A stretch of DNA of 64,000 nt from Octopus vulgaris (taxonomy: Eukaryota), in the NCBI GenBank assembly GCA_951406725.2, contig OX597820.1, forward strand, positions 98,828,001 to 98,892,000. The letters are read 5' to 3'. This document shows positions 663 through 62,186 of the stretch, in pieces; within the stretch, counting starts at the first letter, position 1, and every line of letters starts with the position of its first letter. A model generated the notes under the pieces. The model saw only the letters and a program-made list of their open reading frames with translations. It had not been told where the DNA came from and made no database searches. Position numbers and translations under genes: made by a program.

Positions 663-817
663 TATGTGCGTGTGTATGTATGTATACACAATCATACATA
701 TATACAAGCATGTGTACTGGGAAACGCTGAATATCTGTGCAAATCATCTATATATATATATATATATATACCTTTAGAACATATACAAACACACATGCAT
801 ACGTGCATACATATATA

Positions 818-920
818 CCCTGTCGTTGATGTTGAAATTCCAATGAAGGAGCCTTGTATCTAGGTTACAAACCGATTCTTTCTCTATTGGCAAGAAATCT
901 TGAAATAAACTTAATAATGA
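818..920 (+). mobile_element. 3' UTR end of a (CATA)n-associated RLE LINE family
   Basis: Similar to 58460-58556 and to the UTRs at 33675 and 59941; runs directly into (CATA)n. Confidence 0.6.
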
Positions 921-17466: not shown

Positions 17467-18565
17467 TGCAAAAATATCTACTTCAGAAGGAAGGAAAACT
17501 GATCCAGATAGCGGCAAAACACGAGCAAAACAAAAAACTGTTCTCAGTATTTAAGGAAGCTGAAAAATACAAACAAGAAATCATACCACCTAATAAACAT
17601 GAAGAAGAAGAAGAAGATGAAGAAACAACAAAAGCTATAAAACAAATGAAATCCAAACTAAAAATAGAACAGCAACGAACCATGATAAAACGATGGCAAG
17701 AAAAGCCCCTTCATGGTAAATACTGGACTAAACTAAACGCAAAAGAAATAGACAAAGAAAAATCCCAGCAATGGTTGAGAAGCTCAGGACTCAAAGCAGA
17801 AACAGAGGGATTTTTAATTGCAGCACAAGACCAAAGCCTCCCCACCAGAAATTACCAAAGACATGTAATGAAAAGAAATATTACAAGTAACTGCAGAATA
17901 TGTGGAGATGGACAAGAAACAATAAATCATATTATCTCTAGCTGCCCAGTCCTGGCTAAGAAGGAATATATTCACAGACATGACAGAGTTGGAACTTACA
18001 TACATTGGAAGCTATGCCAACATTATGGAATAACAACAGAAAAAAGATGGTATAGGCACACACCAGAAAAGGTCACAGAAAACGAGAAAGCAACCATACT
18101 CTGGGATATGCCGATACACACAGATAGAGAAATTAAGGCCAACAGACCAGATATAGTTGTCAGAGACCATGAAGAAAAAAAATGCTTTCTAATTGATGTA
18201 TCAGTACCGGCAGATGACAACGTGTCTCTAAAAGAAATGGAGAAACTCTCAAAATACAAAGACCTGGAAATAGAGGTAACTAGAATGTGGAATCTGAAAA
18301 CAGAAACAATTCCTATCATAGTAGGTGCATTAGGCATGATAAAAAAATATTCAGACAAATACATAACAAAAACACCAGGACTTACAAACACATATAACAT
18401 ACAGAAAATTGCACTACTAGGCACTGCACACATCCTACGCAGAACACTTTCCATACAATAACCATCAGAGCATCACAACAAATCACAGCACATACCCAAG
18501 GCACACAGAGCTGCGCTCGGTAGTGAAGTGAAAGCACGCTATAAAAATAAAAATAAAACTACTGA
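17466..18565 (+). mobile_element. R4/Dong-clade non-LTR retrotransposon, 5'-truncated, with intact CCHC knuckle and RLE endonuclease, in (TAA)n
   Basis: Open frame 17466-18461: LHG, AETEGFLIAAQDQ, CRICGDGQETINHIISSC, RHD, RPDIVV..IDVSVP..EKLSKYKDL, IPIIVGALG; (TAA)n on both flanks. Confidence 0.95.
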
Positions 18566-18584
18566 ATAATAATAATAATAATAA

Positions 18585-18882
18585 AATCTTAAAATACAAA
18601 GATCTGGAAAAGGAAGTAACTCGAACGTGGAACCTAAAGACAAACAATTCTTATACTAGTAGGCGCATTAGGTATGAAAAAAAATATTGAGACAAATACA
18701 TTCCAGGACTTACAAATGTATATAACATACAGAAAATAGCACGACTAGGCACTGCGCACATCCTACATAAAGCACTTTTAATAAAACGAAAATAAGATAC
18801 CACAAAAACAACCAGCACATACCGAAGGCACACAGAACTGCGCTCGGTAGTGCAGTGAAAGCACGTGATAGAAATAAGACTA

Positions 18883-18887: not shown

Positions 18888-18960
<73 letters not shown>

Positions 18961-18961
<1 letters not shown>

Positions 18962-19199
18962 GGTGCATTAGGCATGATAAAAAAATATTCAGACAAATAC
19001 ATAACAAAAACACCAGGACTTACAAACACATATAACATACAGAAAATTGCACTACTAGGCACTGCACACATCCTACGCAGAACACTTTCCATACAATAAC
19101 CATCAGAGCATCACAACAAATCACAGCACATACCCAAGGCACACAGAGCTGCGCTCGGTAGTGAAGTGAAAGCACACTATAAAAATAAAACTACTGAAT
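18961..19199 (+). mobile_element. R4/Dong 3' fragment, near-identical to 18323-18565
   Basis: Direct sequence match; flanked by TAA repeats. Confidence 0.9.
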
Positions 19200-25372: not shown

Positions 25373-25932
25373 ACTGCAACAATGGGATAGAAACAGTGGA
25401 CCACCTAATCTCTGGATGTAAGGTTTTAGCACCTGTAGAGTATAAATCAAGACATGACAGAGTTGGCAAATATCTATACTGGATAATTTGTCGGCATTAT
25501 AAAATCAAAACTGCTGGCAAATGGTACAAGCACCACTCCGAGGCTGTAACTGAGGGAGAAAATGTAACTATTGTTTGGGACTTTCCAGTATGTACACACC
25601 AGACCATCAAAGCAAATAAACCAGATATTGTTGTGAAAGACCAAAAACAATAAAGTCTGTTTACTGATTGACATGAGCATACCCTGTGACCATAATATCT
25701 CGGCAAAAGAATTTGATAAGCTCAGAAAATATAAAGATTTGCTAATCGAAATCAAAACGATGTGACATCTCAAGACGGTTACAATTCCAGTTATTGTAGA
25801 AGCACCTCGAATAATCAAAAAATGGAACTGAAAATTATTTAAGAATGATCCCTGGCTTACCATCCAGGCAGGAATTGCAAAATATTGTCTTAACAGGTAC
25901 GACACACGTATTGAGAAGAGCATTGTCGCTAG
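25372..25932 (+). mobile_element. R4/Dong RLE fragment, frameshifted
   Basis: ETVDHLISGC..RHDRVG..WDFPV..KPDIVV. Confidence 0.9.
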
Positions 25933-26608: not shown

Positions 26609-26609
<1 letters not shown>

Positions 26610-27304
26610 TGATTGAAACAGTGGACCACCTAATCTCTGGATGTAAAGTCTTAGCACCAGTGGAGTATAAATTAAGACATGACAGAGTTGGCCAATATCT
26701 CCACTGGCTAATAAGTCGGCATTACAATATCAAAACTGCCGACAAGTGGTATAATCACCACCCTGAGGCTGTAACTGAAGGAGAAAATGTAACCATTCTG
26801 TGGGACTTTCCAGTACATACAGACCGAACCATCAAGGCCAATAAACCAGATATTGTTGTGAAAGACCAAAACAATAAAGTTTGCTTATTGATCGACATGA
26901 GCATCCCCTGTGATCATAATATCTCAGCGAAAGAGTTTGACAAGCTCAGAAAATATAAAGACCTACTCATTGAAATTGAGAAAATGTGGCATCTCAAGGC
27001 GGTTACAATACCAGTGATCGTAGGAGCACTAGGAATGATCAAGAAGTGCAAAAGATTGTCTTAACTGGTACATCACACGTATTGAGAAGAGCATTGTCGA
27101 TGTAAGAACTGTTGCTGCTCATGTATTTTAATTTAACTTTAAAAAAAAAAATGAAAAAAAAAAAAATGAAAAAAAAAAAAAAAATGAACGAACTACTGAG
27201 TTTGGTTTAATGGCCTACCAATGTATACTATGAGTTTCTTTGCCCTAGGAGTCGGGAAGACACTCGGCAAGAAATGGAAGCAAATTTGAAAGAAGAAAAA
27301 AAAA

Positions 27305-27305
<1 letters not shown>
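26609..27305 (+). mobile_element. R4/Dong RLE fragment with 3' UTR, TAA-flanked
   Basis: ETVDHLISGC..RHD..KPDIVV..LIDMSIP..KYKDL..IPVIVGALG; short internal deletion near 27045. Confidence 0.9.
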
Positions 27306-33590: not shown

Positions 33591-33761
33591 TTCAATGCAA
33601 TCTATAGGCGAAATAATAAAACTATGGAAGACATTTCTCAGGTTTAAAATGTATTGTTTTCGTTATCTACATTTCAAAGAGGGAGCTTTGTACGTTTGTT
33701 AGAAACCAGCTTCTTCCTCAGAGGAATAATTCAAAGGATTAAAAACAGAAGAGCCCTACAA
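33590..33761 (+). mobile_element. 3' end of a (CATA)n-associated RLE LINE, diverged subfamily
   Basis: MQSIGEIIKLWKTFLRF resembles the ORF end at 59860; UTR runs into (CATA)n. Confidence 0.65.
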
Positions 33762-34826: not shown

Positions 34827-35127
34827 TCTTCTATTTTTTAAATTATAATAAATCTTCCACTGAGGAGGGGACCGATTTCCAACAAAGATACAAGGCTTCA
34901 TCTTTGGGACGTAGTTAACACACAAATTCATAGTTGAAACTTGAAAGAAGTCTTGCATAATTTTACTGTTGCACTCACAGATTGCATTTGTAATTCGCGA
35001 ATTAGCCGGTCAATTTCTCTTTCTGAAAATCCCAGTTTATCCAGATTCTCCTTTAAGCTTTTACTAACAAAACCTAGTGCTCCAGTATTATTGGCATGAA
35101 TATGAATTCACAGTCTGGATATAAACT
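34827..35127 (-). mobile_element. (CATA)n-associated RLE LINE 3' end
   Basis: Reverse complement of 59720-60022; LYPDCEFIFMPII/GALGFVSKSLKENLDKLGFSEREIDRLIRELQMQSVSATVKLCK. Confidence 0.8.
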
Positions 35128-58427: not shown

Positions 58428-58459
58428 TATACATACATACATACATACATACAAACAAA

Positions 58460-58556
58460 AATACCCTGCTGATGTTGAAATTCCGATGAAAGAGCTTTGG
58501 ATCTAGGTTAGAAACTGGCTCTGTCCCTATTGGCAAAATAAAACCGAATAATGACA
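58460..58556 (+). mobile_element. 3' UTR end of the (CATA)n-associated LINE, flanked by CATA repeats
   Basis: Homologous to 818-920. Confidence 0.6.
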
Positions 58557-58990: not shown

Positions 58991-59619
58991 ATTCTTTTGC
59001 ACAAATTGGCAACGATGGGCGCCTTTTTCTGTAGGTGCTCAGAGAGTTGACACCTATGCTGAAACATGCTTTTATTCCGTCATAGATTTTTCATTGTGTT
59101 TCACTTTTTAGATTAAAACCAACCATAGTATGCAACACATAACAGAAAGATACCTTTAAAATCAAGCGATGTATGTGCCTGAAACTTTTTAAAGTGGGGA
59201 AAGCTCTTGCACAGGACCACCCTATACAACGTATCCATACACCTGTGAACGAAGCCGCAGTGTTTGCGCCAGAGATTTTCTTTTTCTATAGAGATGTCTA
59301 AACAAAGATTATGAGTCTGTCACTCCCTGTGTTTGGATGGCCATTGACTCTACTGAGTTCATCTTCTTTTGTCGCATGTTGCTTTTCATCCTGAAATGAA
59401 AACTACTTTCCTTACGAAGGAGATTTAGTAGAGTTGCCGGTGTAATCGACGGCTGCCCAACCAAGCAGCAGCTTGTACTGGGTTTGGTGTTACAAGTAGC
59501 ATCAAAAGTGACTCTGCATACATACATACATACATACATACATGCAGACATACATACATACATACATACATACATACATACATACATACATACATACATA
59601 CATACATACATACATACAT

Positions 59620-60022
59620 AAATGCAGGTCAGCTGACCTGCAGATATAAATATCTCTTTGAAAAATCAAAGTAAAAAAAAGAGGATATCTATGGACAGCT
59701 GCTTCCAAACCTCCAGCTTCTATATCCAGACTATGAATTCATATTCATACCAATACTAATTGGAGCACTAAGTTTTGTTAGTTAATGCTTAAAGGAGAAT
59801 CTGGATAAACTGGGATTTTCAGAAAGAGAAATCGACCGACTAATTCGTACATTACAAGTGTAATCTGTGAGTGGAACACTAAAAATATGCAAGATTTTTC
59901 TCAAGTTGCAAATGTGAATTCGTCTGTGTTAACTATGTCCCAAAGATGGAGCCTAGTATCTTTGTTGGAAATCGGTCCCCTCCTGAGTGGAAAATTTATA
60001 ATAATTAAAACATAGAAGAGAA
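59620..60022 (+). mobile_element. RLE non-LTR retrotransposon 3' end embedded in (CATA)n
   Basis: VS*PADINISLK../EDIYGQLLPNLQLLYPDYEFIFIPILIGALSFV..SVSGTLKICKIFL; CATA tracts at 59517-59620 and 60022-60135. Confidence 0.8.
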
Positions 60023-60284
60023 CATACATACATACATACATACATATATACATACATACATACATACATACATACATACATACATACATACATACATACA
60101 TACATACATACATACATACATACATACATACATACCTCTCGATAATTCCGCGACCTATGATAGCTGTTCGCTATCTCCTGTCTAACCATGGTGTATATAG
60201 CAATGATTCCATGTTTGCATTTCAATTGTTTTTCATCGCATGATACCCGCTACAATCTTCTCTAAAAAAATCAAAGATCCACAA

Positions 60285-60954: not shown

Positions 60955-62186
60955 TCAGGCTGAGTAAAATGTAAGCAACGTTTTGAAACATGAAATTCGT
61001 CACAATATATTTCAACAATGCCGAAATTTTATTCATCAAAGTACCATCACAATCAACAACGAGTTACAAGTTTGTTTATTCCGGTACCATGAAAATCTGG
61101 AGTTCTGGAGCTGATAAACTCTTTGAACGCACTTTCACTATCGGTTTGCCTTTTGAACTCCTTCTTTCACAGGAAACCATTAAGGTGCTTGAAAAAGTGG
61201 TAGTCGGTAAAAGAAAGGTCTAGGGAATAAGCTGGGTGGGGAAGAACTTCGTAGCCAAGTTCCCTCATTAGTAAAACGTGTGGTCGAGCATTGTCATTAA
61301 GAATGATTGGCTCTCTTCTGTTGACCAGTCTGGGACGGAATAGCAGTTTTTCGTTCATTTTGGCAATTCCATGGCAATATGTTTCTGCAGTAATGGTTTT
61401 TCTGGGTTTTAAGAAGGTATAGTGGATTTGTCTAGCAATAAACCACCAAACACTCACCATAACCTTCTTTTTGAAGAGCTCGGATTTAGGGAAGGTTTTC
61501 GGTGCTTCATTTTAGTCCAACCACTGCGAAGAAAGATTTTTTTATTATTGTACAGAATCCACTTTGCATCGCAAGTTACAATACGGTCGAGAAATGGATC
61601 GGTCTGGTTATGGAGAAGAAGCGACGAGCAAATTTTATATCTGTATTTTATATTCTGTTTTATATCTGTATTTTATATTCTGTTTTTCATTCAAATCGTG
61701 TGGTACCCATTTATCGAGCTTTTTTTGATTTTCCGATCACATGCAAATGGTTGCAGGCAGTTTTCTGGTTAACTTGAAGTTCTTTTTCTAGTTCTCGAGT
61801 GGTTTTACGTGGCTCTTTCTCAATGACGGACTTTAATTGACCGTCATCGATGACTGATGGGCGTCCAATATGCTCACGATCTTCAAGGCTTAGGTTTCCA
61901 CTGCGAAATCGTTTAAACCATTTCCGCGCTGACCACTCACTGGTCATTTCCTTACCAAACGTTTCGTTGATATCGCGACCAGCTTCAGCTGCATTTCGTC
62001 CTTTTTTGAAGTTGAATAGCAAAATTGCGTGAATATCGCGCTTTGACAGTTCCATTTCAGATGATTATAAGAACGGTGAAAATAATATCTATGTTAAGTT
62101 ATCGATACATTTGGGTAAGTCTATGCCTGCATTATCAGACAATTGCTTAAAAAAATGCTTTAAAAATATTCAAAACTCTGCAAAAA
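60955..62186 (-). mobile_element. Mariner (D,D34D) transposon with a pseudogenised transposase
   Basis: ORF 61711-62055 has WFKRFRSG..GRP (HTH); DRIVTCDAKWILY; NDNARPH; PHPAYSLDLSFTDYHFF; terminus TA|tcaggctgagt. Confidence 0.92.

Follow-up and report, generated by a model that had tools for sequence, protein, structure and literature searches.

Copies of a decayed R4/Dong-type LINE family of Octopus vulgaris lie in (CATA)n arrays, likely through recognition of the repeat

Several retrotransposons target microsatellites: Waldo is specific for (ACAY)n, Mino for (AC)n, Kibi for (TC)n, Koshi for (TTC)n and Dong for (TAA)n (PMC3812793). Togen, which targets (TG)n, and some HERO families are also microsatellite-specific and are of the RLE type (PMC4640811). 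The R4/Dong elements carry, at the N-terminus, a Myb/SANT-like domain without zinc fingers, which has been argued to direct targeting (PMC7998251), and the Dong element of B. mori has an HDV-like ribozyme at its 5' end (PMC3774820).

In O. vulgaris, 51 Dong-R4 consensus families have been catalogued, which cover 92.7 Mb (PMC13282606), and other octopus LINE/Dong-R4 families have been reported (PMC8967140, PMC9115989). These libraries concern the same class of elements in the same kind of genome as those described here; the excerpts of the three papers give neither targets nor sub-clades, and those of PMC10294476, PMC5035012 and PMC7728395 give no targets for such elements. In the excerpts of PMC3747384, (CATA)n is mentioned only for LINEs of the L1 clade in algae, as their 3' repeat. 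Literature searches brought up no RLE element that targets CATA or CTTA, and Repbase, Dfam or the Zenodo library may already hold one.

The window analysed here is a stretch of 64,000 nucleotides of the O. vulgaris genome (GCA_951406725.2, contig OX597820.1, positions 98,828,001 to 98,892,000). An earlier note, made from the letters of this window, had reported an RLE C-terminus between two (CATA)n tracts; both arrays are real, and a decayed RLE end lies between them (Table 1). The segment at 59626–60021 (396 nt) matches the final 391 nt of the script consensus of a family that we call A at 93% identity, and is a 5'-truncated copy of this single-ORF LINE of ~3.84 kb. The RLE end that it encodes reads VSxPADINI...YPDYEFIFIPILIGAL...KICKIFLKLQM, in a reading frame with one frameshift and several stops. 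Downstream, decayed fragments of a mariner-like transposase were recognised by eye in the ORF list (61167–62064, minus strand).

Table 1. Elements and arrays located in the window
Feature	Position	Strand	Remarks
Family-B 3' end, with degenerate internal tract	764..920	+	CATA array 920-1247 follows
Dong-like RLE element, young, AAT-flanked	17467..18564	+	Control outside the CATA lineage
Subfamily-C 3' end	33594..33753	+	Followed by a ~500-nt CATA array; 5' side without CATA
Second family-A copy, 5'-truncated	34827..35123	-	91% to consensus; short CATA at 3', (CA)n/(TA)n at 5'
Family-B 3' end	58429..58554	+	CATA upstream, possibly the internal tract of the element itself
(CATA)n array, inferred target	59517..59620	+	5' junction of family-A copy
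Family-A ORF end, 5'-truncated and decayed	59626..59917	+	RLE, catalytic E..S/CP..D..K region to stop codon
Family-A 3' UTR, ends ...AGAAGAGA	59918..60021	+	Conserved core common to families A, B and C
(CATA)n array	60023..60134	+	3' junction of family-A copy

A DNA search of the genome (2.8 Gb in 227 contigs) for the element gave 3781 first-look candidates, 40 of which were scored, at 89–92%. The script consensus obtained from the longer copies is 3837 nt long with a fixed 5' end and has one ORF of ~1170 aa, in which the alignment of motifs shows, in this order, an N-terminal helical (Myb-like) domain, an RT, a CCHC knuckle and a C-terminal PD..D/E..K endonuclease. In the intact relatives, Pfam matched RVT_1 and no endonuclease-phosphatase family, the signature of an APE domain, and a profile built from relatives finds its best matches in the PDB among R2 proteins. 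The assignment to the RLE elements is thus borne out.

The copies of family A have a median identity of 90.9% to the consensus (maximum 96.5%). In 150 RT hits that were scored, the longest open frame was 505 aa and no A or B ORF proved intact; family A therefore looks dead. With the substitution rate of 0.0036 per Myr used in PMC13282606, rough arithmetic places its activity roughly 10–30 Myr ago. Near-identical full-length A copies are clustered at 73.4–74.5 Mb of contig C14 of this genome, G000 (L037, L039, L040, L045, L046, L056), with another on C21 (L043); they have their flanks in common and are segmental duplications. Several A copies contain inverted segments (L064, L071, L079).

The four further 3' ends listed in the earlier note are present, and each is indeed followed by CATA that has the orientation of the element, but they come from three families, all decayed (A, B and C), and not from one. 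These are probably among the 51 families already catalogued in this species. Family B is ~4.0 kb long, with about 59% amino acid identity to A, while subfamily C is older and 86% identical to A when the consensus sequences are compared; its CATA/CACA tails were assessed by eye only. The 3' UTR of family B contains an internal CATA tract, so that the sequence of B includes its own target. Since this tract may supply the CATA found upstream of the 3' ends at 818 and 58460, that CATA is weak evidence of an insertion site. The linker of the B ORF also includes an expandable (TAG)n tract (L216, L217, L226). A block of ~60 nt is conserved between the 5' UTRs of A and B despite the 59% protein identity, and is a candidate promoter or RNA structure.

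The flanks of family A were examined in 79 independent copies, i.e., 90 loci minus 11 repeat fetches or segmental duplicates, the junctions of L004 and L042 being placed by hand. The queries contained no arrays, so the flanks were not selected for. A junction was scored as CATA when at least 13 of 16 bases matched the repeat within 8 nt upstream. By this measure, the 5' junction is CATA in the element's orientation in 49/79 copies, including 13/14 full-length and 36/65 truncated ones, whereas reverse-orientation CATA occurs in 2/79 and AAT in 0/79. The background of the score amounts to 5.0% and 2.9% within the window, to 4.7% in flanks and to 2.7% in arbitrary regions; against a null of 6%, the binomial p is ~1e-39. 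Random 5' flanks, which the earlier note had named as the outcome that would speak against its proposal, are thus not what is seen. An oriented array found at dozens of different truncation points indicates that CATA is more than a tail.

The dominant unit upstream of the A copies is CATA in 50 cases, TA in 3, CA in 2 and GATA in 1, with none in 23. This is not the composition of the genome: in 400 kb of arbitrary DNA, arrays occupy 10620 bases for TA, 3598 for CA, 3104 for CATA and 3064 for GATA, so that TA arrays are 3.4 times as abundant as CATA, and CA and GATA about equal to it, yet all three are rarely used. The proposed specificity for a tetranucleotide is therefore supported. It is either incomplete or its traces have been eroded at some junctions, since the 30/79 copies below the CATA score comprise, besides rearranged or inverted copies and copies with (CA)n/(TA)n flanks, several with plain flanks. 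At the 3' side, CATA is found at 29/35 junctions.

Family B behaves in the same way. At its true 5' junctions, CATA occurs in 22/30 copies of a set collected from the 5' end (reverse 0) and in 22/30 copies of an RT-anchored set (reverse 3), in which three misses stopped at the internal (TAG)n tract. Copies of A and B often abut each other within a single array (L004, L005, L010, L185, L201). The nested loci (these five, L011 and L012) include an A whose 3' end leads directly into the 5' end of a full-length B, as well as B-3'UTR-to-A chimeras.

These data make it very probable that family A is of the R4/Dong type and came to lie in (CATA)n arrays through its protein, which would have recognised and nicked the repeats and copied the element's RNA in at the nick. 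The arrays presumably existed before the insertions; a search by way of host repeats, in which at most 35 two-flank copies were compared with the collected genome loci, yielded neither a clean empty site nor a target-site duplication. Inside the arrays, the cleavage site and the target-site duplication are not resolvable. A look for empty alleles in ~3% of each of three read runs gave no depth on unique flank.

The causality might be reversed: the element would need only a minimal CATA-like site, and would make the arrays itself through its CATA tail and a duplication of a few units at the 5' side, both being later expanded by slippage. RTE elements have been cited as microsatellite generators (PMC9115989, PMC2887409), many 3' tracts here consist of only 1–3 units, the 5' tract is short in some copies (L060, L009, L024), and there is CATA within the 3' UTR of family B. 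This model still requires a CATA motif at the site, however, and the 5' tracts are not shorter than the 3' tracts (medians of 31 and 20 nt, an asymmetry that is not significant, p=0.10). It also fits poorly with the distribution of the arrays: in forty 10-kb stretches taken at round coordinates, which make up the 400 kb of arbitrary genome, only 5/52 CATA arrays adjoin an A, B or C element (6/18 in the window), so that ~90% of the arrays have no adjacent element and targets are plentiful. We consider this reversed order of events improbable. The same counts, together with the equal abundance of GATA arrays, contradict the suggestion of the earlier note that the elements help to explain the abundance of (CATA)n: with only ~10% of the arrays next to an element, the elements use the arrays and do not account for them. 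The 400 kb contain 5 A/B/C copies. CATA stands on the 5' side of every one of the four that include a 3' end, but not of the remaining copy, a fragment of B; extrapolated loosely from these 5 counts, the genome would hold ~35,000 copies.

It could also be that there was no targeting at all, and that the element inserted broadly, its copies surviving in microsatellite-rich DNA or annealing to it by their truncated 5' ends. Such passive accumulation has been proposed for Waldo-A/B of Drosophila (PMC3812793), the octopus genome is very rich in microsatellites, and 23/79 A copies have no upstream repeat. Passive accumulation does not predict flanks that are specific in both motif and strand as above, nor that another motif, AAT, flanks a related family of this genome. 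This explanation is already largely refuted, and we regard it as very unlikely.

Under the favoured reading, that of an element which recognises the arrays, the RNA would be bound by the element's own protein, and a pre-existing array would be recognised by the Myb/SANT-like domain together with a clade-specific basic arm and/or the endonuclease. The RLE would then nick one strand of the array and reverse transcription would be primed there, as in R2; an early stop of reverse transcription would give the truncated copies joined to the upstream array. That reverse transcription is target-primed is suggested by analogy with R2 and Dong.

The N-terminus of the A lineage aligns with that of the AAT-flanked elements. 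The model of this domain consists of three helices (pLDDT 84), and its structural neighbours, at middling Z scores of 4–5.7, are Myb/SANT/trihelix domains, including GT-1, Zeste, ISWI, TRF1 and Myb; Foldseek returned nothing at E≤0.001 with the same model. A basic arm, S-x-R-R-x-R-x-Y, precedes the first Myb tryptophan; it marks the CATA clade and is absent from the AAT elements, which makes it a candidate determinant of specificity.

At the RNA level, a descriptor used without a validated positive control detected no HDV-like ribozyme in A, B, L260–L262 or the AAT family of this genome, and Rfam gave none either, its hits being microsatellite artefacts below threshold. A stem in the 3' UTR, plausible by eye, was discarded: in a covariation test whose outer helix was off register by one column, it had no covariation support (82/500 to 310/500 shuffles scored as high), and the RNAalifold consensus, at only -0.73 kcal/mol, folds differently.

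The lineage is not restricted to this genome. A protein search with a 171-aa RT piece gave 147 proteins, with up to 60% identity, nearly all unnamed, including one homologue from Argonauta; ESM Atlas returned only hypothetical RT clusters, mostly with unrecorded taxa. In a metagenome scan, 80 loci were kept, 71 of them Dong-like, with mostly AAT flanks, and 9 that score as members of the CATA clade (L309 marginally). An end repeat is visible in 4 of these 9, and the other 5 do not reach or show one: L261 has CATA at both ends, L260 and L262 have CTTA at the 5' end, mixed with CATA units in L262, and L263 has CTTA at the 3' end. None of the four, three of which are single-ended, shows AAT; this sample is biased, as a repeat is more readily seen where the contig stops within it. 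The ORFs of L260, L261 and L262 are open over their full length.

In an RT tree (LG+G4) built from 41 rows and 459 columns, with seven distant rows, most of them APE-type, left out, A, B and their unnamed relatives form one clade (support 100/99), sister to the AAT-flanked group (99/97), which is called Dong-like here from rows that include no named Dong, R4, Rex6 or EhRLE sequence. The two together are separated (100/100) from outgroups on a long branch, which we labelled NeSL-like and HERO-like from their N-terminal zinc finger and PF02902 protease. As the earlier note had supposed, the lineage is thus distinct from the TAA-type Dong elements; the note understated it, since members also occur outside this genome and some are flanked by CTTA. 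The latter appear at two places in the clade, whose weak internal support gives no order for the switches, and 17 unnamed proteins placed in the clade come without flanks. A preference for (CWTA)n may be common to the clade. The wider proposal, of an undescribed and widespread R4-type sub-clade, sister to the TAA-specific Dong, that would be specialised for (CWTA)n, would switch between CATA and CTTA and would owe its choice to the Myb-like domain with its RRxRxY arm, seems to us evenly balanced.

The AAT-flanked Dong-like elements of the same genome served as a control. The element at 17467–18564 gave 80,525 candidates in a protein search, including identical hits and open ORFs of 1225 aa. 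In 30 loci of its family, AAT is found at 10/10 of the 5' junctions that are visible and at 28/28 of the 3' ends that were located. This AAT-specific family (in the window, also 18583–18877 and 18953–19193; elsewhere, L218 and L219) is very young, with copies 99% identical and several 1225-aa ORFs open, and is probably still active. A second Dong-like family, about 66% identical to the first in nucleotides, is present at 25390–25900 and 26609–27305, where one copy follows (AAT)n and the other a 330-nt (AAG)n array; (AAG)n is possibly another target of this family. Some AAT-flanked metagenome elements have tRNA-like heads at their 5' end (L269:84-168, L273, L274, L277, L281); ARAGORN found a tRNA-Gly in L269 only, the other heads being recognised by eye. 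A downstream stretch common to L273 and L274 resembles the core of the HDV ribozyme.

The A lineage therefore resembles Dong, DongAg and DongBg (PMC3812793, PMC7998251) in its single ORF with RT and RLE, its zinc-finger-free Myb/SANT-like N-terminus, its microsatellite target and its mostly 5'-truncated copies; full-length profiles of the lineage and of the AAT-flanked elements align with an HHalign probability of 100% at 29% identity. It differs from Dong, which targets (TAA)n, by its (CATA)n or (CTTA)n target, its well-supported separate clade and its additional arm; the descriptor used here and Rfam detected in it no HDV-like 5' ribozyme like that of B. mori Dong (PMC3774820). HERO microsatellite families and Togen (PMC4640811) are likewise RLE elements that have switched to microsatellites, but they belong to other clades, HERO-like and NeSL-like proteins falling outside the group formed by Dong and the tetranucleotide lineage.

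The closest target is that of Waldo (WaldoAg1/2, WaldoFs1; PMC3812793), as (ACAY)n includes the (ACAT)n seen at the A junctions. To say that a CATA-type target had not been described before was thus an overstatement. Waldo, placed in the R1 clade by the title of a cited reference, is of the APE type, whereas the A lineage ends in an RLE and lacks an APE domain, and it rarely uses pure (CA)n while Waldo is specific for (ACAY)n. Because the two enzymes are of different types, their common target is convergent.

The A lineage is a real target-associated R4-type lineage with a new target variant, and its CATA/CTTA switch is testable. It adds a target class to those of the RLE retrotransposons, convergent with that of Waldo, and it means that two sister lineages split the microsatellites of one genome, one using AAT and the other CATA. 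These elements also account for the recurring flank similarity around some CATA markers. How RLE elements change target bears on R2-based genome writing, and retargeting becomes testable with compact proteins without zinc fingers whose targets are one base apart: if the reading proposed here is true, L261 (CATA) on the one hand and L260 and L262 (CTTA) on the other would be a natural set for the one-base retargeting of an RLE element.
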